A DNA stretch of 64,000 bases from Patescibacteria group bacterium. GTDB lineage: Bacteria > Patescibacteriota > Patescibacteriia > UBA11705 > JABHMO01. The position numbers were made by a program, and so were the translations under genes. Positions 8,748 through 60,236 of the stretch are shown in pieces. The stretch is from the NCBI GenBank assembly GCA_018818405.1, contig JAHIRY010000038.1, forward strand, positions 35,449 through 99,448. The letters are read 5' to 3'. Each line of letters begins with the position of its first letter. The first letter of the stretch is position 1. Under the pieces are notes generated by a model. It did no database searches, was not told the DNA's origin, and saw nothing but the letters and a program-made list of their open reading frames with translations.

Positions 8748-8802
8748 ATAAGCGAGATAAGTTTATCCCGCCCGCGGCGGGGCGAGTTAAGTGTATCATT
8801 CA
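8748..8802. repeat. dispersed repeat family R3, copy 1 (AGCGAGATAAG...GTTAAGTTTATCCCGCCC)
   Basis: shares ~45 nt with 42398-42485 and a partial/inverted copy at 11329-11423. Confidence 0.7.
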
Positions 8803-11423: not shown

Positions 11424-12605
11424 TTACGGCGCCATCTCCCGTAATTTTTTTATTGCCACGGTCAGAGATTTGATAAAAGTATTTACTTCAACTTCAGTAT
11501 TATCTTTTCCCAACGAGATACGAATACTGCCATGCGCCCATTTCGGCTGAACGCCCATGGCGGTCAGCACATGCGACGGTTCCAACGAACCGGATGAACA
11601 CGCGGATCCGGTGGAAACCGCAACGCCATCCATATCGAGAAGCATGAGAATGCTCTCTCCTTCGGCATTTTGAAAACTCACATTGATAATATTCGGCAAT
11701 TGAAATTCTCCTTTGCCGTTGAATCTCACATTTTCGAATTTTTCCAATTCACCGGCAATTTTACTTTTTATTTTTTTTATTTTCTGAATATTTTTTTCCT
11801 GTTCATCAGCCACCAGTTCGACCGCTTTGCCAAGACCGACAATCCCCGGGACATTCAATGTTCCCGGCCGCAAACTGTATTCCTGATGTCCGCCGAAAGC
11901 GAGCGGCTCAAACTTTATTCCTCTTTTTGCAAACAATCCGCCGATTCCTTTCGGTCCGAATATTTTGTGTCCGGAAAAAGAAAGAAAATCAACGCCCAGC
12001 CAATTTACCTGGCAGGGCAAATAATTAAAAGCTTGCACTGCGTCAACATGAAAATAAATCGGCAAACCTTTTTCTCCGCGCCGGTCTCTTTCAACTTTTA
12101 TGATTTCGCTGATTTCTCTGATCGGTTGAATTGATCCGACTTCATTATTGGCGTACATAATGGAAATCAAAACGGTATTCGGCTGAATCAATTCTTTCAA
12201 TTTTTCCAATTTCACAACGCCCGCCGAGTCAACTTCAACAAAACCAGCTTCAATCCCCTCTTTTTTTGAAATCGTTTTAAATACTTCCAAAACAGAAGGA
12301 TGTTCTATTTTCGAAGTGATGATATGCAAATTGTCTTGTGTCTGCAAAAGTGAATTTATAATTCCCTGAATCGCCAAATTATTACTCTCGGTAGCGCCGG
12401 AAGTAAAAATAATTTCCTGCGTTTCACAACTCAAATAATTGGCGATTTTTTCTCTCGCATCATCAATCGCGCTCAGCGCTGATTGTCCCGACGAATGCGC
12501 TGAATTGGGATTGCCGAAATTTTCCTGAAAAAACGGCAACATTTCCTGCAACACGCGAGGATCGACTTTTGTTGTCGCTGAATTATCGTAATAAATTTCT
12601 TTCAT
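11424..12605 (-). CDS. iscS: cysteine desulfurase (NifS/IscS class)
   Basis: PLP-lysine region SGHKIFGPKGIGGL, conserved C-terminal active-site Cys loop. Confidence 0.9.
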   Translation of the reverse strand: MKEIYYDNSATTKVDPRVLQEMLPFFQENFGNPNSAHSSGQSALSAIDDAREKIANYLSCETQEIIFTSGATESNNLAIQGIINSLLQTQDNLHIITSKIEHPSVLEVFKTISKKEGIEAGFVEVDSAGVVKLEKLKELIQPNTVLISIMYANNEVGSIQPIREISEIIKVERDRRGEKGLPIYFHVDAVQAFNYLPCQVNWLGVDFLSFSGHKIFGPKGIGGLFAKRGIKFEPLAFGGHQEYSLRPGTLNVPGIVGLGKAVELVADEQEKNIQKIKKIKSKIAGELEKFENVRFNGKGEFQLPNIINVSFQNAEGESILMLLDMDGVAVSTGSACSSGSLEPSHVLTAMGVQPKWAHGSIRISLGKDNTEVEVNTFIKSLTVAIKKLREMAP

Positions 12606-12641: not shown

Positions 12642-12902
12642 TTATTCCACGGCAATCACTTCCGTCACTTCAGGCACGGCTTTTTTTATTTTCGCTTCTA
12701 CGAAATTTTTCAAAGTAATCGAAGCCATGGGACAATGCTTGCACGCTCCCTGCAAACGCACTTTTACTATTCCATTGTCATCAACTTCGACAAATTCCAA
12801 ATCGCCGCCATCCATCTGAATCGCCGGACGAATTTCTTCTATTACTTTTTTTACATCTTGCAACATAAACAATTTATTATTTTTAAAATTTGTTAATCGC
12901 AT
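12642..12902 (-). CDS. NifU C-terminal-domain (Nfu-type) Fe-S carrier; the start may be the internal MLQDVKK at 12866
   Basis: IRPAIQMDGGDLEFVEV...CKHCPMAS motif. Confidence 0.75.
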   Translation of the reverse strand: MRLTNFKNNKLFMLQDVKKVIEEIRPAIQMDGGDLEFVEVDDNGIVKVRLQGACKHCPMASITLKNFVEAKIKKAVPEVTEVIAVE

Positions 12903-12928
12903 CAGGCGGGTGCAACCCGCCTCTACAT
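12903..12928. repeat. hairpin module R1 (AGGCGGGTGCAACCCGCCTCTACA)
   Basis: identical 25-mer recurs inside the composite repeat at 39262-39286. Confidence 0.7.
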
Positions 12929-12934
12929 TTTTGA

Positions 12935-13330
12935 TTATCTCGCTTTCTCGCTCACCAACAAATAATTTTCAATCGCTTTTTTCAACGCATTCTGCGCCAA
13001 AATGGAACAATGCTGTTTGATCAACGGCACGCCGCCCAATTCTTCCACAATATCTTGTTTTGTAATTTTCATCGCCGAATCCAAGGTTTTTCCTTTTGCC
13101 AAATCTGTCAGAGAAGAAGAGGCGGCAATGGCAGCGGCGCAACCCAAAGTTTCGAATTTGATGTCATCAATGATTTCCTCGCCGGCTTGATTCTTTTTCA
13201 CTTTAATATAAATTTTCATGATATCACCGCATTTGATATTTCCCGCTTCACCGACAGCGTCAGCATCTTTAATTTTTCCCTGATTGTGCGGATTTTTGAA
13301 ATATTCCAATAATTTTTTTGAATACTGCAT
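12935..13330 (-). CDS. iscU: Fe-S cluster scaffold IscU/NifU N-terminal domain
   Basis: three conserved Cys (GNIKCGD, LGCAAA, QHCSILA), 131 aa. Confidence 0.9.
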   Translation of the reverse strand: MQYSKKLLEYFKNPHNQGKIKDADAVGEAGNIKCGDIMKIYIKVKKNQAGEEIIDDIKFETLGCAAAIAASSSLTDLAKGKTLDSAMKITKQDIVEELGGVPLIKQHCSILAQNALKKAIENYLLVSEKAR

Positions 13331-13420
13331 ATTTTGTTGATTAATTAATGAATTTATAAATGCGACTAGCCAATAATTTATTCCAGGCTACATGATTTAC
13401 TGTTCTATTACTGATTTACG

Positions 13421-13540
13421 CAATTTCGAATTTAGGATTTAATTGAATTCTAGGCGCAAGATTTTGCGCCTCTACGAAATTCAAAATTTTAAATTGTGCT
13501 CCCTGCCAAGTGCTCTTTGCTCCCTGCTCATTGCTCGCTG
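13421..13540. repeat. composite structured intergenic repeat, copy 1 (nested hairpins plus CT-rich GCTCCCTGC tail) inserted between iscR and iscU
   Basis: near-identical TTTCGAATTTAGGATTTAATTGAATTCTAGGCGCAAGATTTTGCGCC and TGCTCCCTGC blocks at 39203-39345. Confidence 0.75.
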
Positions 13541-13574
13541 AAACCAAACTTTCAACTAACACTATATTCTAACC

Positions 13575-13964
13575 TCAAATCAACTCCGCCAAACTAATCT
13601 CACCCAATGTTTTTCTGATCTGGCTGTAAAGCTTTGCCCAGACAGGATGAATTTTGCATTTTTTCGAATTGCAATGGATTCCTTTATCCGCGCAAGAAAA
13701 CGGCGCAACAGAACCATCCAAAGCTTCAATCATTTCCAAAACACTGATTTCTTTTGCCGGCCGAGTCAAATAATATCCGCCCTTTGCGCCCAGATCAGCC
13801 CGAATAAGCTCAGCTTTTTTCAGCTGAGCGAACAATCTTTCCAGATAAGCAAGGGAAAGGCCTTCTTCCTTGGCAATCATTGCCAAAGAAACCGGATTTT
13901 CTCCGTTTTTGTCCAGATGCACGATGGCGCGCAATCCGTATTCCGATTTGGTTGAAAATTTCAT
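13575..13964 (-). CDS. iscR: Rrf2-family transcriptional regulator (IscR-like)
   Basis: N-terminal wHTH, C-terminal Cys cluster; heads the iscU-nfu-iscS operon. Confidence 0.8.
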   Translation of the reverse strand: MKFSTKSEYGLRAIVHLDKNGENPVSLAMIAKEEGLSLAYLERLFAQLKKAELIRADLGAKGGYYLTRPAKEISVLEMIEALDGSVAPFSCADKGIHCNSKKCKIHPVWAKLYSQIRKTLGEISLAELI

Positions 13965-13993: not shown

Positions 13994-14021
13994 ATTATAG
14001 CAAAAAAATAAACCTTGTCAA
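13994..14021 (-). promoter_or_regulatory. sigma70-type promoter TTGACA-16-TATAAT for the iscR operon (minus strand)
   Basis: reverse complement of 13994-14021 gives TTGACAaggtttatttttttgcTATAAT about 30 nt upstream of the iscR ATG. Confidence 0.5.
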
Positions 14022-14027
14022 TAAAAA

Positions 14028-14078
14028 AATTCGCCCGGCAACAGTTGTTGCCGGGCTCGGTTTTTTTCTACAGCTCCG
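14028..14078. terminator. intrinsic terminator after prs (bidirectional form)
   Basis: A7, GCCCGGCAACA-GT-TGTTGCCGGGC hairpin, T7. Confidence 0.65.
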
Positions 14079-15081
14079 GATCAATGTCATCATAAAGCTT
14101 GCGCTTGTATGCTTCCAATGAACCGCCATCATGAATGATTTGAATCGCGTCAGCAAAGTATCTCATTGCCGAAAGAACTCGAAGTTTCGGAATTCTCTTT
14201 TCCGCGGGAATGGGAATCGTATCCATGAAAATAACTTCCTTGACCAAAGGATGCTCTTGCAACTTTCTCAAATTTGCCAGATTGGTCAAAACAGGATGCG
14301 TCACCGCGATTCGCAAAGAAGCCAATCCCTGTTCCGCTAAAAAATCGGCGGAAACGAGAATTGTCCCCAAACTCATCGCCTCATCATCAAACATCCAGCC
14401 GTGCTTGCCCTTGACCTCGCCGATCATTGCCACAGGCACCGCCTTTTCCGAGTCATCATAGCGCCGTTTATCAATAATCGCGATCGGAATTTTCAACATG
14501 CTGGCAATGGGACCGGCATGCTTCCCTTCATTGATATCCGGAGCAATAACCACCGAATCGGTCAAATCATAATTGAGAATAATTTCTCGAGAAAAAATTG
14601 CTTTGGAGCGAAGAGTTTCCACTTTGCACTTGCCTTCGTCGAAAAACCCATTTATTTGCAAAAAATGAGGATCCATCAAAAGAACGCCTTGCGCTCCCGC
14701 CTCTTGCAACAAATCCGCAAAAAGTTTGGCTCCGAGAGTTGATCGCGGATGATCCTTTTTGTCGCTTCGAATATATGGCATATACGGAAGAACCGCAATA
14801 ATCCGTTCAGAGCCATTGTCACGCAAAGTTCGAAGAAGACAGAGCAACTCGAGGATATGCTCGCTCACATTCGGCGACTGCGTCTGAATAACGAAACAAG
14901 TAAACCCGCGGACATTTTTTTTGACATCCACCAAAAAATTTCCATTGGAAAACAATTTGATTTGCGGGCTGTCCGGCGGTCCATCTGTCGGCTCTTCCAG
15001 CGGCACGCACAGTTGGCGCGCCACCATTCTGGCAAATTCGATATGCGAACTGCCAGAGAAAAGTCTGATTCCGTGCGACAT
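14068..15081 (-). CDS. prs: ribose-phosphate pyrophosphokinase
   Basis: N-terminal LFSGSS, RIIAVLPYMPY, divergent PRPP loop MFDDEAMSLGT; length 337 aa. Confidence 0.8.
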   Translation of the reverse strand: MSHGIRLFSGSSHIEFARMVARQLCVPLEEPTDGPPDSPQIKLFSNGNFLVDVKKNVRGFTCFVIQTQSPNVSEHILELLCLLRTLRDNGSERIIAVLPYMPYIRSDKKDHPRSTLGAKLFADLLQEAGAQGVLLMDPHFLQINGFFDEGKCKVETLRSKAIFSREIILNYDLTDSVVIAPDINEGKHAGPIASMLKIPIAIIDKRRYDDSEKAVPVAMIGEVKGKHGWMFDDEAMSLGTILVSADFLAEQGLASLRIAVTHPVLTNLANLRKLQEHPLVKEVIFMDTIPIPAEKRIPKLRVLSAMRYFADAIQIIHDGGSLEAYKRKLYDDIDPEL

Positions 15082-15200: not shown

Positions 15201-15331
15201 TACCTGTCAAACGGGGAGGAAAGAGATTGAGAGATTGAGAGATTCAGTAAATGAATAATTTTAGAACTAAAAATTACTCAATCTCTCTATCTCTAAATCT
15301 CTCAGTATCTCAATCCCACCTTCCGTCAAAC
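15201..15331. mobile_element. MITE-like hairpin element (~110 bp) with arms built from GAGATT hexamer repeats, flanked by a 7-bp direct repeat GTCAAAC
   Basis: GAGATTGAGAGATTGAGAGATTCAGTA ... TACTCAATCTCTCTATCTCTAAATCTC inverted arms; GTCAAAC at both ends. Confidence 0.45.
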
Positions 15332-22923: not shown

Positions 22924-22954
22924 TCCGCGCGCAAACGCGCAATCAACTGAAAAA

Positions 22955-22990
22955 CCCGCGAACGCGCAGAGCGTCGCGGGAATTTTTTTT
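22955..22990 (+). terminator. intrinsic terminator
   Basis: CCCGCGA-loop-TCGCGGG hairpin, T8. Confidence 0.6.
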
Positions 22991-23030
22991 AAGTGAAACT
23001 ATTTATAAACCTGCGCCCCGATCAGCGAAA

Positions 23031-23250
23031 CTACGACGACAGCAGACTCTGAATCGAGTTCAGAGTGACAGGTGTGGGGCGCGAATTACTAACAATTGCA
23101 ATGAACCTCGAATAGTTGCCACAGTTTCGCAAATACGCAAATGCACAGTTACTCTTACTCCGTCGTCGGCTCTCCCATCGTCACTCTGAACTCGATTCAG
23201 AGTCTGCTTCCGGTTCGCTTAGTCGATTCGCTTACAATGTCGTCATCGCG
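23031..23250. repeat. palindromic repeat family R4, units a (inverted) and b (direct) (core CGTCACTCTGAACTCGATTCAGAGTCT plus ~45-nt tail)
   Basis: 23045-23069 and 23178-23250 are mutually inverted copies; core is itself a 9-bp-stem hairpin. Confidence 0.8.
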
Positions 23251-23267
23251 CAACAACTCACATACCG

Positions 23268-23573
23268 CTAATTCCACGTTGCGCTCAAATCTTCAAAATT
23301 AGGATTTTCCTTTTTTATCAAATCAATTTTCCACGGCCGATGCCATCGCTTCAATTGTTTTTCTCTGGCAATGGCAGAATACACATCCGTAAAATCCTCG
23401 TAATAAACTAATTTTTGTAAACAATAACGAGCGCTGAATGAATTTGGATTGTATTTATTTTTGTGTTCCCACAAACGCCGCTCAACATTGTTCGTCACGC
23501 CAATATAAAAAACCGTATTCCTTGTGTTTGTAATAATATATACATAATAATTACGTTGAACAAATTTTCGCAT
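23268..23573 (-). CDS. small GIY-YIG nuclease (YhbQ/COG2827-like)
   Basis: YVYIITNTRNTVFYIGVTNNVERRLWEH GIY-YIG core; 101 aa; paralog of 33838. Confidence 0.8.
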   Translation of the reverse strand: MRKFVQRNYYVYIITNTRNTVFYIGVTNNVERRLWEHKNKYNPNSFSARYCLQKLVYYEDFTDVYSAIAREKQLKRWHRPWKIDLIKKENPNFEDLSATWN

Positions 23574-23676
23574 ATCATTTTTTAAATCATGCTAACTAAT
23601 ACTTTCAGAATAGCACAATTTTTTTTCGACCGGAATAAACAACGAAACAATCGCGCCTTCGTTCAGCGAAACTTCC

Positions 23677-23905
23677 GACGCTAACAGACTCTGAATCGAG
23701 TTCAGAGTGACGGGGTGCGGCGCGTCGTCTCATCATCATCATGATTATCCTCGTCACTCTGAACTCGATTCAGAGTCTCCCTCCGGTTTCACCTAGTCGG
23801 TTCCGCTACGACAGCGTCCGCCCGCCCCTCCTCATCGTCACTCTGAACTCGATTCAGAGTCTCTTTTCGGTTTCGCTTAGTCGATTCGACTGCAACGGCG
23901 TCGCG
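23677..23905. repeat. repeat family R4, units c (inverted), d and e (direct, tandem)
   Basis: 23677-23712, 23749-23819, 23833-23905 share the CGTCACTCTGAACTCGATTCAGAGTCT core and tail. Confidence 0.8.
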
Positions 23906-24045
23906 AAACATTCGTCTGCCGTGTACAGGCGTCACAAACGCAAACATTCCCGTAAATTTACACGCAACCTTGACAAAAACCAAAGCAAATGATATATTCG
24001 GCATAGAAAGAAATCACATGGCGATTTAAACAAGGAGGTGTAGCC

Positions 24046-24831: not shown

Positions 24832-27800
24832 CTACGGTAATACTATAATTTTTCCATCGAAAGAAGTCCCCGGCTCTCCGTGCTCATCCAGTGGATCACA
24901 CAATGGAAAATCACCTTCATTATAACACCCATCCGCACCCCCGCACGTCCCATTACACCACCCCCAATTATCCGTCACAATCACCCGCGGAATATACTGG
25001 CAGGCGGGATTGCCTTGGTATGTTGTTCTGCAGTAATTCGGGTCTGCGCCGGCAGTGCCGCAATCCTTCAAAACAGGATCAGACAAATTACAAGTATAAG
25101 TATTATTGTAAGAGAAATACGATTCCATGCATGCATCAGTCGTGTCGCCGAAACGATCATCCTTTTGATCGGAACATTTCCCGGTGAAGAAACATCTGCT
25201 CGGATCGCTTCCCTCTTCACATCGCGGATCGTCAGCATCATAGCACGCGGAATCATCAGAGCAAGCCAGACCGGAAACTCCGTTGCATATTCCCAACGGT
25301 TCATTGGCCGGTCTCTGACATCGAGGCTTATGATTTTGGTACTTTCCATCAACGCCCACTCCCTGAACTCTCTCACCCCAATCGATCGTCACATTTCTTA
25401 TCGGCATCTGATCATCATTCGCCCAAGCATAGAAATTCATTGTCACTGCCAACTGACCATCCAGACTTACAATATCGCCGCTCGTCTGTCCGCGAATGGT
25501 CATCGTATTGGGAATAGCGCCATACAAAACATTTCCTTTCGCGTCAGACCTGCCACTGGGTATTGCGGCCGCAATCATCGGAACACCGACTTTTTGCTCA
25601 TTACTGATATCCCAAATTTTATTAGGATTATTCAAGTAGCCTATTCCATCGGCATTGCTCGGAATGTTAATAATATTTGAGCAGGATGCGCTCGGATCGC
25701 TTTTCATTTCCGGAGGATTTGTCGCGACCACTTCTTTTAGAATAACCGTGCCGACATACCCAAATGGAGTATGCTCATATTTTTCTATTGGGCAACTATT
25801 ATTCTCCAATGTCCTGCCGACATAACATTCCGCAGATATTTCCTGCTGTGCAAAGTTATAACTGTCTATGAAAAGCCAATGTTCTGCCAAAATGCTCCGA
25901 TCAGCTTTCTGCCATATGCAATTCGCCTCATTGCGTTCAATATTTGGCAAATTGGCAGTGCAATAAACACGATTTCCAGCATTGCCGACTACCGGAGCGG
26001 TATTCACACATTCGGTATCCCAGAAGCAAGGATTGCCGGAATTCGCTCCCGATTGATTATTGCAATGGCGAAGAGTAAGAATATTGCATTCCAACGGATA
26101 TTGAGCGGTTGTACAAACATTTGAATCACTGGTGCAAGACAATCCGTTTATTTCAGGATGAATGCTGGTGCAGGTTTTTTCTTCAATATTTTGAATTTTC
26201 ATTTCGTAATAAGTCTTTGCCGCAGCAAAATACTTTTTCAAAGCATCAATACTTTGATAAACAATTCCGCCCTCAGGATAGTTCTCTTCCTGATTGCACC
26301 CAGCACCCAAAAATAAATTGTAAATAGTCTCGCCAATACCGCCCGTCAATGCCAAGGCTCCAAGCGGATTGCACTTTGGCTGATCAGGAATTTGAACGGA
26401 TTTATAAATTTCATTAGTAAATGCTTTGTTTTTTCCATTCTCATCGGATACTCCGACAGCAGTATCACAGCTTTGCTTTGATATTTCGCCGATCGCCGCA
26501 TTCGTATTGCCGGCTGCATCCTTGTACCAGCCAGCCGATTGATCAGCGGGCATATTTATCGGTTTACATTGATATGTCATTTTAAACCAATCTTCATCCT
26601 CTAGGCTACACTCATCTGTAGCGCCATCATGGTCGAATATACCGCCATCATGTTCGAATGAATTCGCTCCGCCGATATTATAATTCTTATCACAACTGGG
26701 ACGTTCAAACTTCTCGCCACCGCAATCTCTGGTCCAACAAGATGCTGTATTTCCAATGCCTCCAAACGGATCAGTATTCGCATTAATTGTTCCGGCTGAA
26801 ACATTGGAGCTTCCCACCAAGCGATCCCATAATTTGTCCGCTGTCCACCGAGTATAAACATTTGGATTGCCGCTCACGCAAGCGGAACCGTTTCCATCGC
26901 ATTCTATTCCGGCAGTACTGGAAGCTAGGCCGGCCGGCAAACAATTTTCACGAACTTCTTTTGTTTCTCCATTACACGCATCCAGAGCCCCTCCATCGCA
27001 ATCCCTATACCCTTCTTCCGTTTGATTATAATTCTGTCTCTTTTCCCAATTACTGCTTTTCAGACAATAGTAAGGACTGCCATCGCTAAATCCATAATCT
27101 TGCGGCCAGAAGCCGGCGGAATCATATTGATTCTGCAAATCCTGCAATCCGGCCAACGCTTCCGTCGGATACCAAGTAATGCAAGGATGTTCTTCTTGTT
27201 TGTTATTTTTCGGCAGACTGATGTCCTCTTGCAGACAATATCCTTCCCAGCCATGATAATCTATGGCAGTGCCTTTCTTTTTCATGCATAACCCCGGTTC
27301 ATTTCCTTTTGAGATAGGTTTTGAAGAATTGAGAGAACACTGGATAGAAGAACACATTGTTTTATTATTTATCTTTACCATGGGAGAACTATCAATTTGC
27401 GGATAATCAAAATCATCGCACTGACATTGAATATCAGGTGAATCCTGACAAAAGCCTTGTTCCGGATCTGCTGGCGAATATAATTCTGTTTTCGGCACAT
27501 ATTTTGTGATCGCCCCACCACCATATTGAACCTCTCGATAATAACAACCGTAGTCTTCATTTTTATTAATTTCCGCAAAATCCACATCCAGCCAAGAAAT
27601 ATTCGCGTTTACGTATAAATCAGTGCCTGCAATACCGGCTGGAAACGGCGAATCATCCTTCGGATAAGCACGGCATTCCGGAGCTGCAGCTTCTTGAAAT
27701 GTTCTTTCTGATTCCGAGGTCTGCACACAAATTCCACTCAAACATCGACAATTTTCTCCGCTTGGATTTGCAACAGTACAAGCATCCGTGCAATCACTAT

Positions 27801-30800
27801 CCTGTTCACAAGAGGTATCGGTTAATTGATTTACCAATCTAAAATCTTTTTCTTTATAAACTTGCCCGCGAACTTCTTCACAACTAACGACTGCCTCAAT
27901 CCTGCAAATATTGCCTAAGGAAATGCAGTTTCGTCCTCCGCTACAATCATCGGCTGCTTCGCAACGGCCATATTCTCTTTCTCCACCGCAATAACTTCCG
28001 CAATCAGCATCCGTGGAACACAACCCTTCGTTCGGATTACCAAAACAATATTGTTGACCGCAATCATTGTCATTCACACAAAGATTGCCTGAAGTTACTC
28101 CTCCGCATCTCTTGTCCGGTTCAACCCCGCGTCCCTGCCTCAAATCAAAAGAATTATAAAAATTTACCGGCGCCATATCCGGAATCGCCATTCCGGTATA
28201 ATCGAGCGAAGACCAGCTGACATTTCTATTCTGATAACCGTCAGTTTCATCCGTTCCCTTCAAAGGTTTGTTCAATGACAATAAATTATTATTATCTTCA
28301 CCGACAATGAAATGCGCGCACTTCAATGTATCTTCCGCCGGACTGAGCTTGTCGCAAACTCCGACATCATCGCAAACCTCAATATATTTATTTTTATTCG
28401 AATCCCACGCCCAGTGACTGGACTTGCAATCGTACCAAGCCGCGCATTCGCGATCGCGGACGACTTTTACTATGGAATTCGCATCATTTTTTGAAGCAAT
28501 CAATTCAAATGTACAGGCAATCTGTCTATCAGTACATGTATTAATCTGCTCGGCGCGCGCTTCTCCTGCGCAAGTCAAATAATCTTTTTCAGCATTCACA
28601 CAAGATTCGACTTTTTTACAATAATCATCTTCAGTACAATCACCCACCCGCCCCAGAGCATAACTATCAAACGTCGAAGCATTCTTTGGCGGAACAGCAC
28701 TTTGTTTATCATTTCCTTCAAAATATGTTAAATATCCCTGCCATTTCAAATCAGGTTCGCCATTGGCATTTAACATAGAGGTATCATTCATCAAAATACA
28801 ACCTTCTTTACGACTGACATCTGAACAGGAAGTCTTGTCTATGTCTTCATTATTAACATAATAATAAGCTTTTCCTTTGTCTGACAAAGTTTTATCAGTG
28901 GGATCCACGAACGCGGTGCACAAATCCGCGCTTGACTTGCAGATACCGGCCCAGCCTGAGAAATCTTCATCATTTATTCGAATAATCTGCGAATTTCCAT
29001 CTTCATAATAATTCTTTGTCTCGCATAGTACATCCGGATCATTATCATTCAGTTTCTTTTTGAACCATCCAAATATACTCTCAGAACCTTGCTGAGCTTT
29101 TCTGTATTCGCAAGTTTTATCACCCGGATCCTTAAAATAATAAGTTTCACCTTTTACTCCCTTGAATTCCTCACATCTCAAATCACTATTAGCGCACAGA
29201 GGACTGTTCTCACTATCAAAAGTATCAGGATCCAGTTTGTAAAATACATTGTTCCATTTGTCCTGGGATGGAATATAATTCCCCTCAGCATCCACCATCA
29301 AAGTCGGCAATCCCAGAGCCGTACAACCCTTTTCCGTGTTTTTACATTGTTTATCTTTTGTGTTAACGAGATAAATCAATGAATCTTTTTCTATTTCTTG
29401 AAGGTAGCAGACACCATCGTTCCAATTTCCATCCAAATAACCACACATGTTTTCATAAGTCTGTGAAAGAGCGGGAGGTTCACCGCCAACCTTTGCACGA
29501 ACTTGGAATGTACATGCTTGCAAATTTTCATTCACAACGGCTGCAGTTCCCGGTATCTGGAAAAAATTATTCGTTGGAACTGCCTCCCATTTACTCATAT
29601 AAGAGGAACACAATTCAACATTCAACGGAATTTTCTTGTATCCTTGTTCAAATGGAGACGAACTGTTCTTCGTATCAATCATCGTCTCGCAACCGACCTT
29701 GTCAGCCGAACAGATATTGGTAAAGTTTTTCAGATAATGAGTATTCTTGCCGCTGTCGCGATATTCGCGGCAACCCAGCTGAGCTTGCGGAATTTGTCTG
29801 TCAGCTTCATTTGCCGGAGTATGGGTCAGCTCATTGTCGCAGATCGCCGGAGTACTCCATGAATTTTTGATTAAATATTTGAGATCATTTACTTTTGTGA
29901 TTTTGAAATTGTCGATGTAAAAAGTTCTTTCGCACTGGGACGCGCGTATGCCTATAACACCGGAGGCATAAGTCTCATCCACACTCAAATTAAAAGTATG
30001 AAACTGCCAATCAGCATTAACCGTGCCGTCACCCAATAAAAATTTTCGATCTCCGGTGTTTATATTTTCAACCGGCCTCACATCAACATTGAAATTCGTG
30101 GGATCGCCTTTGATCCAAAAAGAAACAACATAATCACCGACTGCTGATAAAAGCGCATTTTTTGTATATATTCTTGGTGATTCAACACAACTCAATCCCT
30201 CAATCCCGTTAACAGACTCTATTTCAGTCTTCTCTTCCACCATTAAATACTGCCCATCCGCTTGTGTCGTAAGCGACATTGGACTTCCTTGCAAACTAGT
30301 TACCTCTCCGGTCGCAAAATTATTCTCATAAACAATTTCCTCATCACCGCTGAAATTGCCTTTGTATTCTCTGCAGCCGGCGGCAGGCGCTGAACATTTC
30401 TTGCCTTCGCCCGGAATTGCCATGAAAACGCATTCGCCAGTGTTCCACTGCCCCTGCCTCAGTTCGCATTGAGCCTGATCCGCGTATTGCAATGTTCGGC
30501 GATAAGGATGACAATTTTCCGAACAAGTCAGAGTCTTTGAATACAAACGATAAGAAACTCTGCCGGCATCATCGTAAAATTCACGGCAGTCGGGATTTGA
30601 TTTTACAGCGAATATTTCCGCGTTGCACCGGGTTAGATTTTCTTCCTCTGCAATCGTCATTGCCGGAGCATTTCCTCCGAGTTCTTTTTTCAATACATAA
30701 TTCTGCAATTGATAACCGGAAACTCCGCCTCCGACCCAAGTATAATAATTGGCGCACTGAGCCTCGCCCTCGGGAAGTTTCTGGCATTGCCTCAATTCGG

Positions 30801-33753
30801 AATAATATTCTTTTGATTCTCCGCCTCGCGACAATTCATCCAGATTGGTAAATTCATCGCATCCGGCGCTGGCCGCGCTGCAAGTTTTTGCAGTATTCGG
30901 CATGAAATAAAGCGGAAACTCTCCATTTTCAAAATAAGTTTTCGACTGGTTGAATGTCGCATAGCCAGCGCATTGCTGAGGACAATAATCCGCGAATCCG
31001 GCAACGCCGTTGATAGCGCGTCCGCGATCAGTCGGCGTGAAATTCTGACAGCCGACATCTTCGGCAGAACAAAGTCCGGCAAAATCAGAACAGCCTTTGT
31101 TTTTCTCGGTTTTTACCGCATCATCGGAAACATCAATATCAGCCTCAGTCTTCGGCCTGCCATAATCCGCCTCTTCAATTGTATTGTAGCAACCCAAATA
31201 TTCAGGCGCTTTTTTCACATAAACAACATTCTGGCTGGCATATTCATTGAATTCATGCATTTCGGAAATTGCCGGCAGAGAAAGTTCCTCAACCATTACA
31301 TTGTCCACGATCGCGTCTCCGCCGGCCACAGCCAATTGAAATTGCAACTTGTCAAGTACGATTGGATTCGCTCCGGTCGATACTTTCACTTGCCAAATTT
31401 TATAAATTTTTTCCCAGCTGTCCGTTGCTGTCGCCGCTGTAATATCTTTATTGGCAACAGCTGACATGGCCAATCCATCTGCATCGGGAGCAACCAATTC
31501 GATCACTGCCGACGCATTGGCCTGTTTCTTTTTCACAAACCCGGAAACCGCAAAATATCGGGCTGTTTTCTTTGGCGCGATTTCAATATTCGGAATAATT
31601 AAATTTTCCAAAGCGGCTAATTTAACGGCCGCTCCTCCTTCATAAGACTCGGAAACCACATTTTTCCCGCCCGCCCAGCCGGTGACAATGTTCGTTGATT
31701 GCAATTCATCAATTCTCCCTGAAAAAATTTCAAAATCTCCGTTTACCACCAGATTCGTTCCCAATCCGCTCGCTGTTTTCACAAATCTCGTGCAACCCTC
31801 TTGATTCGGATTGCATTGCGCGTTTTCGATATTTTTATTCAATAAAATTTTTGAAGCATCCGCGTCCACCCAATTCCAAGAATTATCCGCCAATATTTTC
31901 TCAGTGCTGTACCACTTGCAACCCGCGTTCGTCGCGTCGCAAACCGATCGATCGACAGTGTTCATCACCAAATTAACGGATTTTCCCTTCCTCATCTGCA
32001 AAGAACGGCAACTGTCATAAACGCCCGAACATTCATCTCCGCCCAATCGGAAAACATTTTTCTCAGCCGCGCAATATCCCCAGGAAAGACACTTGCCCTT
32101 TGCATCAGTGCGCACACAGCTCGGCATATCAACGCAGACTTCAGCTCGAGTGTTCGAACCCGCGTCAATCAACAATGGTCCGTTAACCAACGCATTGCAT
32201 TGCGTTGCCGGATATTTCAAAATCCAATTCGGATCAATCAACTGCCTGAATTTATAACCCGCGTCATTTGGATTAGTTTGATTGAATTGACTGATTACAT
32301 AATTCAATGAGACAACTTCTTCCGAACCAACCTGACTGGCGGCAAGCTCCCAGCCGATTGGAATTATTCTCGCTGTTCTCAGTTTCACCAAATTGGAATA
32401 ACAAAAACCGTATTGATAGCAATCGGCATTGGAATTTCTCGCATCATACTTTCCGATCAAACGGCGCTTGCCGTCAATCAGTCCCTGATCAATGGCCTCC
32501 TGCACTGACAGCGGCTTGTCCTGAGTTGAACGGCGAACAGCATCGGCAAACGCATTATCCATGACGCAATTGTTTATCTGCCTTGTCCGGGGACAAGAGG
32601 TATATTCAGTCAATAAATCAATTTGCTTGGTGGAATAAGTGAAATTAACCTGCTTTATTTTTATTACGTCTTTTTCCACCTGCTTTTTCGTATCAAACAT
32701 ATTGTCAGCCGGCTGATAACTCTCCGAAGTTTGCACCAATCCCTTTTCAAAAAACTTCTTGCTCATGAAGTCAACAAATCCTTTTGAAATAAAAGTATTA
32801 ACAAAAGCGCCGATTACCGATTCCGGTATATCGGAAATCACATAACTGGCCGGTTCCATTTCAGTATTCTTCGCCTCGGTAATTGCTTGCAGTTCGTTTG
32901 TCATGTGTCCGCGCAAAAGGAAAGAAGGCGTTTTTATAATATCGCCACTCAGACTGGTTATCGCCTTTGCTCCTAAATTTTCCGTTCTTTGCTTTTCTTC
33001 CGCCATGCTTGTAATGCGCTGTTGTCTCTGCAATTCATCTTCCATTGTCAGATACATCCCGATGTCAGAACTTTTGCGATCAAACTTCACTTCAATGATT
33101 CTCTGCAATGCGATAAGAGTACCGGCGGCCGGATTATCAGAAATATTATCAGCTGTTCGTTTAACATCCTCGACAAATGATTCCCAATTATCTAACAAAT
33201 TACTTAAAGAACAATCCGGTTTTACCCTTGTTTTATCTTTTAGATATTGATTATCCAAACCAATAACGATTTTCAATTTTACATCAGCTCCGGGATCGCA
33301 AATATCAAATCCCAAATCATCCCAAAATACATCTCTGACATAGGTAATGAATGTCGCTGCCGTGTAATCCATTATATCCTGCTTGAATTTTTCCCACGAC
33401 TGAGTGTAAAACATCGGTCCCTCGCCCTTGTCGCCGGTAGTGACAAAATTATAATATTGAGACGCCGCTGTTTGCGCCAGAAAAACCATAGTATTGCGCA
33501 AAGTAATGGCTGCGGATAAAATCAATGCTTTCTGCAAACGATTTTCCACATTTTTTTGAGTTTTATCAACCGTTTTCTCAATGTTGCGCTTGACTTCAAA
33601 ACCCATATCCTGCGCATTTTTAGCGGGATCAATGACCGGCAATTCAGCGCGAGCCTCTCGCGGGAACAACATGCCGGCAGCAATGAAATTTGAAAACGCA
33701 AAACAAAACACCAAAATCGCGATTGATATTTTTTTGTTTTTATTTAAAGTCAT
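24832..33753 (-). CDS. giant (2973 aa) Cys-rich secreted/surface protein with CBM4/9-like beta-sandwich segments
   Basis: uninterrupted 8.9-kb ORF; N-terminal signal/TM; many Cys; NGDFE...GW CBM-like blocks. Confidence 0.85.
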   Translation of the reverse strand: MTLNKNKKISIAILVFCFAFSNFIAAGMLFPREARAELPVIDPAKNAQDMGFEVKRNIEKTVDKTQKNVENRLQKALILSAAITLRNTMVFLAQTAASQYYNFVTTGDKGEGPMFYTQSWEKFKQDIMDYTAATFITYVRDVFWDDLGFDICDPGADVKLKIVIGLDNQYLKDKTRVKPDCSLSNLLDNWESFVEDVKRTADNISDNPAAGTLIALQRIIEVKFDRKSSDIGMYLTMEDELQRQQRITSMAEEKQRTENLGAKAITSLSGDIIKTPSFLLRGHMTNELQAITEAKNTEMEPASYVISDIPESVIGAFVNTFISKGFVDFMSKKFFEKGLVQTSESYQPADNMFDTKKQVEKDVIKIKQVNFTYSTKQIDLLTEYTSCPRTRQINNCVMDNAFADAVRRSTQDKPLSVQEAIDQGLIDGKRRLIGKYDARNSNADCYQYGFCYSNLVKLRTARIIPIGWELAASQVGSEEVVSLNYVISQFNQTNPNDAGYKFRQLIDPNWILKYPATQCNALVNGPLLIDAGSNTRAEVCVDMPSCVRTDAKGKCLSWGYCAAEKNVFRLGGDECSGVYDSCRSLQMRKGKSVNLVMNTVDRSVCDATNAGCKWYSTEKILADNSWNWVDADASKILLNKNIENAQCNPNQEGCTRFVKTASGLGTNLVVNGDFEIFSGRIDELQSTNIVTGWAGGKNVVSESYEGGAAVKLAALENLIIPNIEIAPKKTARYFAVSGFVKKKQANASAVIELVAPDADGLAMSAVANKDITAATATDSWEKIYKIWQVKVSTGANPIVLDKLQFQLAVAGGDAIVDNVMVEELSLPAISEMHEFNEYASQNVVYVKKAPEYLGCYNTIEEADYGRPKTEADIDVSDDAVKTEKNKGCSDFAGLCSAEDVGCQNFTPTDRGRAINGVAGFADYCPQQCAGYATFNQSKTYFENGEFPLYFMPNTAKTCSAASAGCDEFTNLDELSRGGESKEYYSELRQCQKLPEGEAQCANYYTWVGGGVSGYQLQNYVLKKELGGNAPAMTIAEEENLTRCNAEIFAVKSNPDCREFYDDAGRVSYRLYSKTLTCSENCHPYRRTLQYADQAQCELRQGQWNTGECVFMAIPGEGKKCSAPAAGCREYKGNFSGDEEIVYENNFATGEVTSLQGSPMSLTTQADGQYLMVEEKTEIESVNGIEGLSCVESPRIYTKNALLSAVGDYVVSFWIKGDPTNFNVDVRPVENINTGDRKFLLGDGTVNADWQFHTFNLSVDETYASGVIGIRASQCERTFYIDNFKITKVNDLKYLIKNSWSTPAICDNELTHTPANEADRQIPQAQLGCREYRDSGKNTHYLKNFTNICSADKVGCETMIDTKNSSSPFEQGYKKIPLNVELCSSYMSKWEAVPTNNFFQIPGTAAVVNENLQACTFQVRAKVGGEPPALSQTYENMCGYLDGNWNDGVCYLQEIEKDSLIYLVNTKDKQCKNTEKGCTALGLPTLMVDAEGNYIPSQDKWNNVFYKLDPDTFDSENSPLCANSDLRCEEFKGVKGETYYFKDPGDKTCEYRKAQQGSESIFGWFKKKLNDNDPDVLCETKNYYEDGNSQIIRINDEDFSGWAGICKSSADLCTAFVDPTDKTLSDKGKAYYYVNNEDIDKTSCSDVSRKEGCILMNDTSMLNANGEPDLKWQGYLTYFEGNDKQSAVPPKNASTFDSYALGRVGDCTEDDYCKKVESCVNAEKDYLTCAGEARAEQINTCTDRQIACTFELIASKNDANSIVKVVRDRECAAWYDCKSSHWAWDSNKNKYIEVCDDVGVCDKLSPAEDTLKCAHFIVGEDNNNLLSLNKPLKGTDETDGYQNRNVSWSSLDYTGMAIPDMAPVNFYNSFDLRQGRGVEPDKRCGGVTSGNLCVNDNDCGQQYCFGNPNEGLCSTDADCGSYCGGEREYGRCEAADDCSGGRNCISLGNICRIEAVVSCEEVRGQVYKEKDFRLVNQLTDTSCEQDSDCTDACTVANPSGENCRCLSGICVQTSESERTFQEAAAPECRAYPKDDSPFPAGIAGTDLYVNANISWLDVDFAEINKNEDYGCYYREVQYGGGAITKYVPKTELYSPADPEQGFCQDSPDIQCQCDDFDYPQIDSSPMVKINNKTMCSSIQCSLNSSKPISKGNEPGLCMKKKGTAIDYHGWEGYCLQEDISLPKNNKQEEHPCITWYPTEALAGLQDLQNQYDSAGFWPQDYGFSDGSPYYCLKSSNWEKRQNYNQTEEGYRDCDGGALDACNGETKEVRENCLPAGLASSTAGIECDGNGSACVSGNPNVYTRWTADKLWDRLVGSSNVSAGTINANTDPFGGIGNTASCWTRDCGGEKFERPSCDKNYNIGGANSFEHDGGIFDHDGATDECSLEDEDWFKMTYQCKPINMPADQSAGWYKDAAGNTNAAIGEISKQSCDTAVGVSDENGKNKAFTNEIYKSVQIPDQPKCNPLGALALTGGIGETIYNLFLGAGCNQEENYPEGGIVYQSIDALKKYFAAAKTYYEMKIQNIEEKTCTSIHPEINGLSCTSDSNVCTTAQYPLECNILTLRHCNNQSGANSGNPCFWDTECVNTAPVVGNAGNRVYCTANLPNIERNEANCIWQKADRSILAEHWLFIDSYNFAQQEISAECYVGRTLENNSCPIEKYEHTPFGYVGTVILKEVVATNPPEMKSDPSASCSNIINIPSNADGIGYLNNPNKIWDISNEQKVGVPMIAAAIPSGRSDAKGNVLYGAIPNTMTIRGQTSGDIVSLDGQLAVTMNFYAWANDDQMPIRNVTIDWGERVQGVGVDGKYQNHKPRCQRPANEPLGICNGVSGLACSDDSACYDADDPRCEEGSDPSRCFFTGKCSDQKDDRFGDTTDACMESYFSYNNTYTCNLSDPVLKDCGTAGADPNYCRTTYQGNPACQYIPRVIVTDNWGWCNGTCGGADGCYNEGDFPLCDPLDEHGEPGTSFDGKIIVLP

Positions 33754-33781
33754 TTGATTTTATATTTATGATTTTATTAAT

Positions 33782-33860
33782 GTCGCACTTCGACAAGCTC
33801 AGTGTGACAGGGGGGGGGAAGCGCCCCCTCTCACTTGTCAGGCTGAGCCTGCCGAAGCCC
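33782..33860. repeat. repeat family R5 (inverted unit, G9/C5 hairpin, partial direct unit), downstream of the GIY-YIG gene
   Basis: GTCGCACTTCGACAAGCTCAGTGTGAC, AGGGGGGGGGAAGCGCCCCCT, CTGAGCCTGCCGAAG. Confidence 0.75.
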
Positions 33861-34143
33861 CGTTCGACAACTCCTTCAATCTTTCAATATTCCCCTCAAT
33901 TAATGCAACTTTCTTTCTGCGGCTCCAACCTTTTATTTGTTTTTCTCTGGCGATCGCGTCATTCACATAATAATGTTCTTCCGCATATACCAATCGAACC
34001 GGCCGCCGCGAATATGTATAACTTTTTTCGCTTATTCCCAAATTATGTTCATCCAGCCTTCGTTCAATATTATTTGTTATTCCCGTATACAAACTCCGAT
34101 CGCTGCATTCAACTATATAAACCGTGTATATCTTTCTAAACAT
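33838..34143 (-). CDS. small GIY-YIG nuclease, second paralog (ORF to 34167; likely start is MFRKIY at 34143)
   Basis: YTVYIVECSDRSLYTGITNNIERRLDEH GIY-YIG core; C-terminus is read through the R5 repeat. Confidence 0.8.
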   Translation of the reverse strand: MFRKIYTVYIVECSDRSLYTGITNNIERRLDEHNLGISEKSYTYSRRPVRLVYAEEHYYVNDAIAREKQIKGWSRRKKVALIEGNIERLKELSNGASAGSA

Positions 34144-34160
34144 TTGCAATAAACTTTTAT

Positions 34161-34311
34161 GTCGCACTTCGGCAGGCTCAGTGTGACATGAATTTAACTG
34201 TCACACTGAGGCTAAAAGCCTGTCCCGAGTCGCATCGAGCGGAAGCGTGCTATCATCGTCATCGCAATAACTGTCACACTGAGCCTGCCGAAGTGCCGCT
34301 TCGCTTAACAC
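34161..34311. repeat. repeat family R5: one inverted and two direct units (GTCACACTGAGCCTGCCGAAGTGC...TTCGCTTAACAC)
   Basis: 34161-34187 (inverted), 34200-34222, 34273-34311; 11-bp stem between the first two. Confidence 0.8.
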
Positions 34312-36138: not shown

Positions 36139-36180
36139 AAATTATTTGTAATATTCCGCCGTCATCCGAAACAATCCGTT

Positions 36181-36238
36181 CGGAAATGTGGAATTGTAAG
36201 GGTTCAACATGTTGAACCCTTACAATTCCACATTTCCG
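36181..36238. repeat. 58-bp perfect palindrome (29-bp arms) between prfB and rsmA
   Basis: CGGAAATGTGGAATTGTAAGGGTTCAACA|TGTTGAACCCTTACAATTCCACATTTCCG verified base by base. Confidence 0.9.
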
Positions 36239-36262
36239 CAATTCCGTTATAATTCAACGTCC

Positions 36263-38792: not shown

Positions 38793-39062
38793 TCATTGGC
38801 CTAAAAAACCCTTCAAAAAATCACCCGGCACGCTCGAGCCGCCGCCAATATTCCCCATTAATTGTTTGTAGGTTTCAATCGCTTCGCGCAAAATCGGAAC
38901 CGCGTACAAAATGGCCAAAACCACCGGAACAATAATTATGACAAGCTTGATAATGCTGAAAATCTGCGACCACAAAATATACCGCTGAGTCCGAACCATC
39001 ATTTTGTGGATTCCTTTTGAATATTCCAAATTCTGACGCAACAACTTTTTTATTTCCTCCAT
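38793..39062 (-). CDS. small hypothetical membrane protein
   Basis: 89 aa, one TM helix; located downstream of the composite repeat. Confidence 0.45.
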   Translation of the reverse strand: MEEIKKLLRQNLEYSKGIHKMMVRTQRYILWSQIFSIIKLVIIIVPVVLAILYAVPILREAIETYKQLMGNIGGGSSVPGDFLKGFLGQ

Positions 39063-39202
39063 ATTATATTTTTATTTCGAATTTCATTTTGAGGTCGCTA
39101 ATTTACCGCCGCAGCGTGCGGGGTTCCGCTCGCAGCGGGACGAATGTCACAAATATTACGAATTATCCTTTGCAACTAAAAAATTTATAATTTATTATTT
39201 TA

Positions 39203-39345
39203 GTATTTCGAATTTAGAATTTTATTTAATTGAATTCCAGGCGCAAGATTTTGCGCCGGATTAGGCGGGTGCAACCCGCCTCTACAAAAATTGTTACATG
39301 CTTCATGTTATGTGCTCCTTGCTCCCTGCTCCTTTCTCCCTGCCA
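39203..39345. repeat. composite structured intergenic repeat, copy 2 (includes the R1 hairpin module)
   Basis: same blocks as 13421-13540 plus the AGGCGGGTGCAACCCGCCTCTACA module. Confidence 0.75.
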
Positions 39346-39348
39346 ACG

Positions 39349-40110: not shown

Positions 40111-40254
40111 CTATTTATTCAACATGCGGCTGAATGTTTTTCTGTCGCCGAATTCAGCTTTTTTTCCGTCATTCCACCGCTGAATCGGACTCAAGTATCC
40201 GACAACCCGTGAATAAACCTCGCATTTTTGTCTCTCAAGTTTTCTTGCTGCCAT
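40111..40254 (-). CDS. standalone 47-aa glycyl-radical domain ORF (the C-terminal tail missing from NrdD)
   Basis: MAARKLERQKCEVYSRVVGYLSPIQRWNDGKKAEFGDRKTFSRMLNK; RVxGYL glycyl-radical motif and downstream N.GK..E..R as in NrdD C-termini; not in the ORF track because it is under 60 aa. Confidence 0.6.
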   Translation of the reverse strand: MAARKLERQKCEVYSRVVGYLSPIQRWNDGKKAEFGDRKTFSRMLNK

Positions 40255-40300
40255 AATTTTTTTCATTTTATTTTTATTAAATTAAATTCTTTTTTTCGCT

Positions 40301-60024: not shown

Positions 60025-60067
60025 TGTTTCGACTCCTTCTAGTAAAAATTTAATTATATTAACCACC

Positions 60068-60185: not shown

Positions 60186-60236
60186 CTTAAACGTCGCCCA
60201 CATATTACCGCAAACATTCACTTCCGTCAAGATCCC

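Follow-up and report, generated by a model that had tools for sequence, protein, structure and literature searches.

Genomic Setting of the Element

A short composite repeat occupies the spacer between the genes for an Rrf2-family regulator and IscU in the genome of a Patescibacteria group bacterium of the Candidate Phyla Radiation (CPR), and was analyzed here in a stretch of 64,000 nt (the window; contig JAHIRY010000038.1, positions 35,449 to 99,448 of the forward strand). A second copy (39203-39345) lies downstream of nrdG. The genes flanking both copies are all encoded on the minus strand, and the elements are therefore read on the minus strand, i.e., in mRNA sense. Read in this way, both copies present the same order of modules, in which a stop codon is followed by heptamers of the form NNGAGCA, one or two GC hairpins preceded by GTAG, and an AT-rich tail. 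The sequences and modules named in an earlier description, made from the letters of the window alone (the sequence-only reading), were found where they had been placed, with deviations of no more than one or two bases. The window has a GC content of 43.6%, and its closest relatives, at 65-72% identity, are Falkowbacteria- and Kuenenbacteria-like metagenome-assembled genomes (MAGs). Contigs from other assemblies match the window at 100% over 2.6-12.4 kb, including contig L128 with 100% identity across 12,393 nt, and extend it by 3.2 kb to the right (L128) and 10 kb to the left (L130), giving a sequence base of about 77 kb of this genome.

Because the Rrf2 gene is preceded at 14021-13994 (minus strand) by a sigma-70 promoter that scores 12/12 and has an extended -10 (TTGACA-16-TGnTATAAT), and the Rrf2-IscU spacer contains neither promoter-like sites nor sense-strand terminator-like sites, copy 1 is probably co-transcribed within the isc mRNA. 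A bidirectional intrinsic terminator behind prs directly precedes this promoter (joint region 13994-14056, minus strand). Intrinsic terminators, i.e., a GC hairpin with a U-tract on the sense strand, are absent from both spacers that hold the copies; only 12904-12922 scores as terminator-like, on the antisense (plus) strand, where a solo hairpin is followed by CTACATTTTT. Moreover, a search of the whole window against Rfam 15 gave no match at gathering thresholds (best sub-threshold scores of 13-20 bits compared with thresholds of 38-61), and a search for tRNA and tmRNA genes found none. A literature search with the literal repeat sequences returned no match, and short k-mers and peptide translations yielded primer noise alone. 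An independently transcribed small RNA gene would agree with the stable hairpins in long AT-rich spacers and with a weak promoter-like site on the plus strand (39169-39198, 9/12) that points into copy 2. However, promoter-like counts are not above those of shuffled sequences, a sense-strand terminator and an Rfam family are lacking in the window, and the element is not conserved in relatives, which makes such a gene extremely improbable.

Composite Repeats and Their Modules

In copy 1, the Rrf2 stop codon is followed in mRNA sense by 34 nt, six NNGAGCA heptamers, 21 nt, the hairpin GTAG-A-GGCGCAA-aatc-TTGCGCC-T (hairpin 1), GAATTCAATTAAAT..AAATTCGAAAT, and 120 nt leading to the IscU start (Table 1). 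On the plus strand, the heptamers read TGCTCCC, TGCCAAG, TGCTCTT, TGCTCCC, TGCTCAT, and TGCTCGC, and Tandem Repeats Finder (TRF) reports a period of 14 at 13511-13540. The sequence GGCGCAAGATTTTGCGCC is located at 13453-13470, and hairpin 1 with its flanks folds at -16.6 kcal/mol (z = -3.95). An AT-rich imperfect palindrome encloses this hairpin and spans the arms AATTTCG (13424-13430) and CGAAATT (13476-13482) as well as AATTTNG heptamers, whereas the minimum free energy fold of copy 1 prefers an alternative pairing of GAAUUUC with GAAUUC. The nested hairpins described in the sequence-only reading are thus present in copy 1, with a GC hairpin inside and imperfect outer arms, but the outer AT-rich stem is confined to this copy. 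The CT-rich tail of that reading is also present and corresponds to the tandem heptamer array, which is TGCTCNN repeated six to seven times on the plus strand.

Copy 2 begins 1 nt after the nrdG stop codon (TAG) with seven heptamers, followed in mRNA sense by GTAG-A-GGCGGGT-tgc-ACCCGCC-T (hairpin 2), AATCC, GGCGCAA-aatc-TTGCGCC-T, the GAATTCAATTAAAT module, AT-rich heptamers, and a second GC module. Its heptamers on the plus strand are TGCTTCA, TGTTATG, TGCTCCT, TGCTCCC, TGCTCCT, TTCTCCC, and TGCCAAC; exact TGCTCNNTGCTC is confined to two loci in the window, the copy 1 array and 39313-39331. The tandem hairpins fold at -29.7 kcal/mol (z = -5.05), and the AT-rich array contains ATTTCGAATTT, which occurs exactly in the window only at 13423, 39074, and 39205. 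A BLAST comparison of the window with itself recovered 13437-13470 against 39224-39257 (34 nt, 97%, E = 1e-11), 13510-13529 against 39312-39331 (20 nt, 95%, E = 0.003), and 12904-12927 against 39263-39286 (24 nt, 100%, E = 6e-8), and the repetition between copies 1 and 2 is far above chance. The last of these matches confirms that the extra hairpin of copy 2 also stands alone between the genes for the NifU C-terminal-domain protein and IscU, as the sequence-only reading had noted; this solo unit (TGTAGAGGCGGGTTGCACCCGCCT) lies 8 nt past the IscU stop codon. Near-identical blocks make up about 54 of the approximately 140 nt, and the mean column identity of the two spacers aligned with MAFFT is about 75%, so that the description of copy 2 as an almost verbatim recurrence was overstated.

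A third composite (copy 3) was found outside the window, on the opposite DNA strand between der and pth. It consists of nine NNGAGCA heptamers that start from the der stop codon, a 43-nt block (TGTAACAATTTTTGTAGAGGCGGGTTGCACCCGCCTAATCCGG) that is identical in copies 2 and 3 and includes GTAG hairpin 2, and the CCCCGCACGCTGCGGYGGTAAATT module, which in copy 2 occupies 39100-39123 in mRNA sense; besides its one hairpin, copy 3 carries a degenerate one. The blocks therefore recur in one order and orientation at three loci, i.e., Rrf2-IscU, downstream of nrdG, and der-pth. Solo hairpins and two further family members, both located between two genes for TSP3-repeat proteins, were also found (Table 1). 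When metagenome contigs were scanned with the composite-specific pattern TTAATTGAATTCNAGGCGCAA, the sole match was a chance one inside a leuA gene.

A composite of 120-230 nt present at three loci and insertion-like relative to related genomes could be a conventional miniature inverted-repeat transposable element of about 120-150 nt, with terminal inverted repeats, target-site duplications, and a DDE transposase. The composites are not bounded by terminal inverted repeats, however: copy 3 has no inverted repeat of at least 9 nt, and the long one of copy 1 is internal, around the hairpin. The three copies also differ in module content without common termini, their modules are found alone as well, and no transposase was seen nearby in the Pfam lists. 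We regard this explanation as very unlikely.

Table 1. Coordinates of the repeat modules and of the surrounding genes (positions refer to the window unless a contig is named).
Feature	Position	Strand	Remarks
prs	14068-15081	minus	
Rrf2-family regulator	13575-13964	minus	stop codon 13575-13577
IscU (NifU_N)	12935-13330	minus	
NifU C-terminal-domain protein	about 12642-12866	minus	
IscS (Aminotran_5)	11424-12605	minus	
nrdG	39349-40035	minus	stop TAG 39349-39351
89-aa open reading frame (ORF) beyond nrdG	38793-39062	minus	
Copy 1 heptamer array	13497-13540	minus	34 nt past Rrf2 stop; NNGAGCA x6 in mRNA sense
Copy 1 GTAG-tagged hairpin 1	13452-13475	minus	GTAG A GGCGCAA aatc TTGCGCC T; stem 8 bp, loop 4 nt
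AT-rich imperfect outer palindrome enclosing hairpin 1	13421-13496		arms 13421-13440 / 13477-13496, 20 nt, 80% complementary
Solo GTAG-tagged hairpin 2	12904-12927	minus	T GTAG A GGCGGGT tgc ACCCGCC T; IscU-NifU spacer
Copy 2 heptamer array	39299-39347	minus	1 nt past nrdG stop; TRF period 7, 4.4 copies at 39313-39343
Copy 2 GTAG-tagged hairpin 2 (extra module) AGGCGGGTGCAACCCGCCTCTACA	39263-39286	minus	100% identical to 12904-12927
Copy 2 hairpin 1 (GGCGCAA aatc TTGCGCC, without its own GTAG) and GAATTCAATTAA module	39224-39257	minus	34-nt block of 13437-13470
Copy 2 AT-rich heptamer array, AATTTAG x5.7	39182-39222	minus	TRF
Copy 2 second GC-rich module, mini-hairpins CCGCAGCGTGCGG and CCGCTCGCAGCGG	39100-39141	minus	from sequence
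Copy 3, third composite	L128 1571-1798	opposite DNA strand to copies 1 and 2	1.4 kb beyond window; between der/EngA (GTPase) and pth
Solo hairpin 1 GTAGcGGCGCAAaatcTTGCGCC	L130 4292-4314	antisense to flanking genes	adjoins gatB
Family member GTAGAGACGCAttgcaaTGCGTCGCTAC	47542-47569		tagged on both sides; nested in outer stem CATGGCG/CGCCATG; fold -32.7 kcal/mol, z = -9.4
Family member GTAGCGGCGGGTctagACCCGCCGCTAC	47632-47659		nested in outer stem GGCGGTAA/TTACCGCC; fold -50 kcal/mol, z = -8.0

The hairpins form a coherent family. Those at 12904, 13452, 39240, and 39263 have stems of 7-8 bp and loops of 3-4 nt, and those at 47542 and 47632 have stems of 6-8 bp; GTAG precedes five of these six. 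When all 256 tetramers were placed directly 5' of perfect GC-rich stems of at least 6 bp, GTAG ranked second (7 occurrences compared with a mean of 1.1), exceeded only by AAAA, which is associated with terminators. Similarly, GTAGNGGCG was observed 6 times in the window, with 0.45 expected, and a count of 6 was reached in none of 100 shuffles. On a constant base of AGGCG/CGCCT, the upper stems vary by compensatory changes (GCAA/TTGC, GGGT/ACCC, and ACGCA/TGCGT); these were read directly from the sequences, as MAFFT set the 3' halves out of register where loop lengths differ. The individual local hairpins are far more stable than shuffled sequences (z = -3.4 to -9.4), whereas the whole composites of 150-230 nt fold no better than shuffles (z = -0.74, -1.95, and -0.05). 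The idea of one large structured RNA was dropped because these global folds do not rise above shuffles.

Syntenic Spacers in Relatives and the Link to Iron-Sulfur Genes

The contiguity of the Rrf2 (iscR) and IscU genes, a point raised by the sequence-only reading, is maintained in relatives, in which the gene order prs-Rrf2-IscU-NifU-IscS-ftsW is kept. The Rrf2-IscU spacer measures 244 nt in the window, whereas L003 has 91 nt at this place, L006 98 nt, and L008-L010 only 5 nt. Neither these spacers nor those downstream of nrdG in L131 and L132 contain the element, which this lineage has therefore acquired on its own, in spacers that tolerate small repeats or attract them. Furthermore, no GTAG hairpins were found in 20 kb of sequence from L003 or from L008-L010. 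The spacers of the relatives contain other repeats: TACGGAT heptamers and a different hairpin repeat lie between Rrf2 and IscU in L003 and L006, respectively, and the region downstream of nrdG holds 16-mers in inverted arrays in L131 and GAAAACAC / TTTCGTGA arrays in L132. The syntenic spacers of related CPR genomes (L003 10388-10478 and 11287-11410; L006 10391-10488; L131 6688-6863; L132 6688-6789) hold unrelated lineage-specific micro-repeats, including CCCCTAGGGG palindromes. Different repeats have thus repeatedly colonized the same positions.

As both large copies first described adjoin genes related to iron-sulfur (Fe-S) metabolism, a shared regulatory RNA or operator had been suggested as an alternative to coincidence, i.e., a Fe-S-responsive cis-regulatory device common to the isc operon and the radical-SAM gene nrdG. 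Two of the three composites do flank Fe-S-related genes (Rrf2/IscU and NrdG), but the third lies between der and pth, and other hairpins adjoin the TSP3-repeat genes and gatB. The Fe-S association therefore does not hold, by the refuting condition given with the sequence-only reading (copies placed without regard to gene function). Members of the hairpin family also adjoin unrelated genes in at least eight phyla, and relatives with the same isc and nrd synteny do without the element. In addition, the element is located downstream of the regulator gene and of nrdG and not at a promoter, the only strong promoter being the one upstream of Rrf2, and Rfam gave no match. The Fe-S-responsive regulator is therefore largely refuted, and we give it hardly any credence. 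The modular family of hairpins with TCTACA recognized in the sequence-only reading is supported. In gene sense, its units read as GTAG plus hairpin, and the family recurs in the genome and has the look of small DNA that is mobile or dispersed.

Occurrence of the Hairpin Across Phyla

The species representatives of GTDB (596 Gb) were scanned for the exact hairpin 19-mer AGGCGCAAGATTTTGCGCC, which was found in more than 114 loci (a lower bound), compared with about 4 expected by chance in this amount of sequence. Among the matches listed, Bacteroidota predominate, and at least eight phyla are represented (Bacteroidota, Patescibacteria, Proteobacteria, Chloroflexota, Acidobacteriota, Spirochaetota, Fibrobacterota, and Synergistota). 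Tagged copies among these matches occur in other Patescibacteria (L025, L104, and L105), Gammaproteobacteria, Hyphomicrobiales, Chloroflexia, Acidobacteria, Spirochaetes, Fibrobacteres, and Synergistales. Among the matches listed, the 5' flank is GTAGA in 47 of 123, GTAAA in 16, GTTGA in 8, and GTGGA in 6, and the 3' flank is TCTAC in 40 of 123. From the counts of GTAGA and TCTAC flanks, the common form is the 28-nt palindrome GTAGAGGCGCAA-GATT-TTGCGCCTCTAC. About a quarter of the matches listed fall within crude ORF calls, several without the tag; untagged matches inside ORFs are probably chance matches in GC-rich genes. Their placement resembles that of REPs: of the matches listed, 27 are flanked by convergent genes, 41 by unidirectional genes, and only 5 by divergent genes, and the median distance is 43 nt from the stop of the upstream gene and 155 nt from the start of the downstream one. 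The loop orientation relative to transcription is unbiased among the cross-phylum matches listed (24 vs 17).

Many copies are located at the tip of longer, copy-specific palindromes or within another copy (L025, L048, L076, and L089). In the Patescibacteria MAG L025 (3250-3310), a GTAG hairpin is nested exactly in the loop of another copy (GTAGAGACGCAAAAT[GTAGAGGCGCAAGATTTTGCGCCTCTAC]ATTTTGCGCCTCTAC), which suggests insertion into hairpin tips. Several copies adjoin heptamer-like arrays (e.g., L074 and the MAG-134 loci). A scan of viral contigs for the 19-mer gave no match, and there is thus no sign of a phage vector. Given that the palindrome is identical in at least eight phyla, appears to insert into existing hairpin tips, and persists in streamlined CPR genomes without a visible REP-associated tyrosine transposase (RAYT), it is conceivable, though we hold it to be improbable, that GTAGAGGCGCAA-N4-TTGCGCCTCTAC is one pan-bacterial 'nano' mobile element or a sequence targeted by an enzyme that itself travels horizontally. 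If this were true, its spread would be independent of a resident, vertically inherited RAYT, contrary to the current model of REPINs and RAYTs.

Comparison With Known Repeat Families

The hairpins match the GTAG-tagged superfamily of repetitive extragenic palindromes (REPs), which has been reported from more than 80 species in eight phyla (Di Nocera, De Gregorio and Rocco, 2013; PMC3733652). In that survey, a GTAG-REP is defined as a palindromic unit of 20-40 bp with a stem of 6-13 bp, a short loop, and a terminal GTAG or degenerate GYRG. Such REPs show complementary stem variants, occur as singletons, dimers, and groups, and are located downstream of ORFs between unidirectional or convergent genes; their GTAG sometimes provides a TAG stop codon, and some families are embedded in AT-rich palindromes (PMC3733652). 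They are associated with RAYT transposases, although the REPtrons can be missing (PMC3733652). The superfamily includes the REPs of E. coli and Pseudomonas and the SMAGs of Stenotrophomonas, and the hairpins described here share with it a unit of 23-28 nt whose GC-rich stem (7-8 bp) closes a loop of 3-4 nt and bears GTAG at one foot. Like the surveyed GTAG-REPs, they are extragenic, carry complementary stem changes, lie near the 3' end of the upstream ORF between unidirectional genes, and occur both as singletons and in groups; all window copies are between same-strand genes, with sense-oriented hairpins 8-99 nt past a stop codon. One copy lies inside an AT-rich palindrome, as do the GTAG-15 dimers of A. 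variabilis. In structure and position, the hairpins thus agree in all respects with a GTAG-REP as defined there (palindromic unit, GTAG end, and extragenic placement). They differ from the GTAG-REPs described there by their host, a CPR bacterium, and by the many cross-phylum copies that are tagged on both sides (GTAG...CTAC) as a perfect 28-nt palindrome. Patescibacteria are not mentioned in the sections of the GTAG-REP survey considered here (PMC3733652), nor in the 2025 RepRanger survey.

The composites as wholes are comparable to enterobacterial bacterial interspersed mosaic elements (BIMEs), which are described as mosaics of REPs in regular alternating orientation together with conserved inter-REP motifs (Nunvar et al., 2010; PMC2817692). 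Both combine REP hairpins with other short conserved motifs, vary in composition, and occupy intercistronic or 3' untranslated region (UTR) positions. Strict BIME architecture was not found: there is a single hairpin in copy 1, the two hairpins of copy 2 differ from each other and stand in tandem at a distance of 5 nt, and copy 3 has one plus a degenerate one. A REPIN consists of two REPs in inverted orientation, which together fold into one long hairpin (Bertels and Rainey, 2011; PMC3116915), whereas the composites are not doublets, no inverted doublet of one unit being present in any of the three, and no RAYT was found in the approximately 77 kb.

The heptamer arrays have counterparts in the intergenic arrays near upstream ORF ends of Xanthomonas (GGGAATC) and Nostoc (GGGGAYT), for which polymerase slippage has been proposed (Rehm et al., 2015; PMC4692102). 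Both have a period of 7 and lie in spacers, where the end of the preceding ORF is far nearer than the start of the following one. Unlike the Xanthomonas and Nostoc heptamers, however, the unit NNGAGCA does not form G4 structures, and the arrays, three so far, are each linked to a GTAG hairpin. A head-to-tail arrangement like that of short tandemly repeated repetitive sequences (STRRs) is evident from TRF periods of 7 or 14 at 13511-13540, 39313-39343, and 39182-39222 and from the nine units of copy 3. For Nostoc, Elhai and colleagues (2008) are reported to have described mobile dispersed repeats of 21-27 nt that occur with heptamer arrays, and the STRR heptamers of cyanobacteria are reportedly accompanied by tiny hairpin repeats that can nest. 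Of the known systems, these repeats would come closest to the mosaic as a whole.

Interpretation of the Composite Element

Three kinds of building blocks make up the composites, namely GTAG-tagged GC hairpins of 23-28 nt, NNGAGCA arrays right after an upstream stop codon, and AT-rich heptamer or palindrome segments. The element is probably a patchwork of small intergenic repeats that are dispersed in the genome in the manner of REPs and BIMEs, and not a gene-specific regulator. The hairpins may have spread as single-stranded DNA hairpins, either via a RAYT or IS200-type HUH transposase or by template switching into existing palindromes, and the heptamer arrays would subsequently have grown by replication slippage. 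REPs are described, in the literature considered here, as contributing to mRNA stabilization and termination and as context-dependent regulators in 3' UTRs. By analogy, a generic effect would be expected of the element as well, in the isc mRNA as in copy 2 (3' region of nrdG) and copy 3 (3' region of der). A stable intercistronic or 3'-UTR hairpin could slow 3'-to-5' exonucleolytic decay or modulate read-through, and the ratio of upstream to downstream gene expression may be adjusted as a result, as for REPs.

Several observations weigh against the interpretation as dispersed repeats. No Pfam match to a RAYT/Y1 transposase (PF01797) was obtained in the readable sequence of about 77 kb, and a crude scan through every frame of the window and of the 132 loci found no HUH...YxxxNP motif. 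The regularly alternating REP orientation of E. coli BIMEs is not seen in the composites, whose additional motifs are tandem heptamer arrays. The census within the approximately 77 kb is small, with about eight GTAG hairpins and three composites, and no presence/absence polymorphism that would show recent mobility was seen within the population. The effect of the element at the RNA level is, furthermore, something we purely infer. Finally, module order and orientation relative to the upstream gene do not differ among the three composites, which could mean RNA-level selection instead of neutral or selfish spread; this uniform orientation therefore leaves room for selection on the transcript.

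The explanation that ranks second, which we nevertheless consider unlikely, is a selected, generic RNA device of the 3' UTR or intercistronic region, in which array and hairpin are kept for a function in the transcript. In one variant, the hairpin would act as a decay barrier combined with GGAG-rich, Shine-Dalgarno-like repeats (CAGGGAG/CAAGGAG) that hold ribosomes or an RNA-binding protein; in another, the C-rich antisense (UGCUCCC)n would be a Rho-loading site that halts antisense transcription into the gene. Such a device would explain why module order and orientation are alike although copy 3 is on the opposite DNA strand, where the GC skew shows no clear reversal, and why the heptamers begin 1-34 nt past the stop codon in copies 1 and 2 and at the der stop in copy 3. 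The unrelated repeat structures in the syntenic spacers of relatives could likewise reflect a recurring need for structure. On the other hand, there are three copies only, solo hairpin 1 on L130 is antisense to its flanking genes, and neither the unbiased loop orientation across phyla nor the folding of the composites, which is no better than that of shuffles, agrees with it. A CsrA-like protein, which a GGA-repeat sponge would involve, was not found in the readable sequence by a crude motif scan.

Other Repeats and Genes in the Window

The window contains further repeats. Two paralogous small GIY-YIG ORFs (23268-23573 and 33838-34167, minus strand) are 40% identical, and their spacers (22924-23992 and 33754-34310) are packed with their own CGTC-tagged hairpin repeats, CGTCACTCTGAACTCGATTCAGAGTC around the first and CGTCACACTGAGCCTGCCGAAGTG around the second. 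This arrangement resembles a REPtron with a GIY-YIG nuclease replacing the RAYT. The second of these CGTC-tagged families also has three tandem copies at 60069-60193 (region 60067-60236), in which a 4-bp stem covaries (CACT/AGTG, CGCT/AGCG, and GGCT/AGCC). Other spacers (15222-15315, 59511-59580, 36139-36262, 8750-8800, and 42410-42480) harbor inverted pairs of short tandem arrays (AGAGATTG / CTCAATCT; ATTAAG / CTTAAT) and a long palindrome. The repeat GAGATAAG..TTTATCCCGCCCNCGGNGG..CGAGTTAAGT is common to two loci, where AAGCGAG-type arrays flank it; arrays of this type also enclose the solo hairpin of L130.

Upstream of nrdG, the gene for the anaerobic ribonucleotide reductase NrdD is split. 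An ORF of 688 aa (40301-42367, minus strand) ends after the CxxC zinc site, and the glycyl-radical motif RVVGY is encoded on a separate 51-aa ORF (40111-40266, minus strand) 34 nt downstream. The split is kept in two relatives as a 47-aa NRDD-domain ORF (L131 5824-5967 and L132 5754-5897). The minus strand also encodes two giant ORFs of 2973 aa and 2822 aa (24832-33753 and 48489-56957), and the second of these, together with a 643-aa neighbor, carries T4SS_pilin and Big-type domains in precomputed Pfam annotations.

Implications for Small Repeats in Patescibacteria

The analysis removes a tempting false lead, the shared Fe-S regulatory RNA, and shows that even Patescibacteria genomes of the approximately 1-Mb class carry REP/BIME-like micro-repeats inside essential operons. 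On the practical side, such repeats break metagenome assemblies and spawn spurious small ORFs. Independent assemblies of the same population break off inside repeats, L127 at window position 39280 (within hairpin 2) and L001, which starts at 23249 in the CGTC-repeat region, and the repeats therefore fragment CPR MAGs. The most interesting residue is the sequence-identical hairpin in many phyla without a visible transposase. The presence of this hairpin in many phyla, the different repeats in the spacers of relatives, and the GIY-YIG genes among CGTC-tagged hairpins together suggest that uncultivated bacteria possess a layer of small, fast-evolving repeats that has been under-described.

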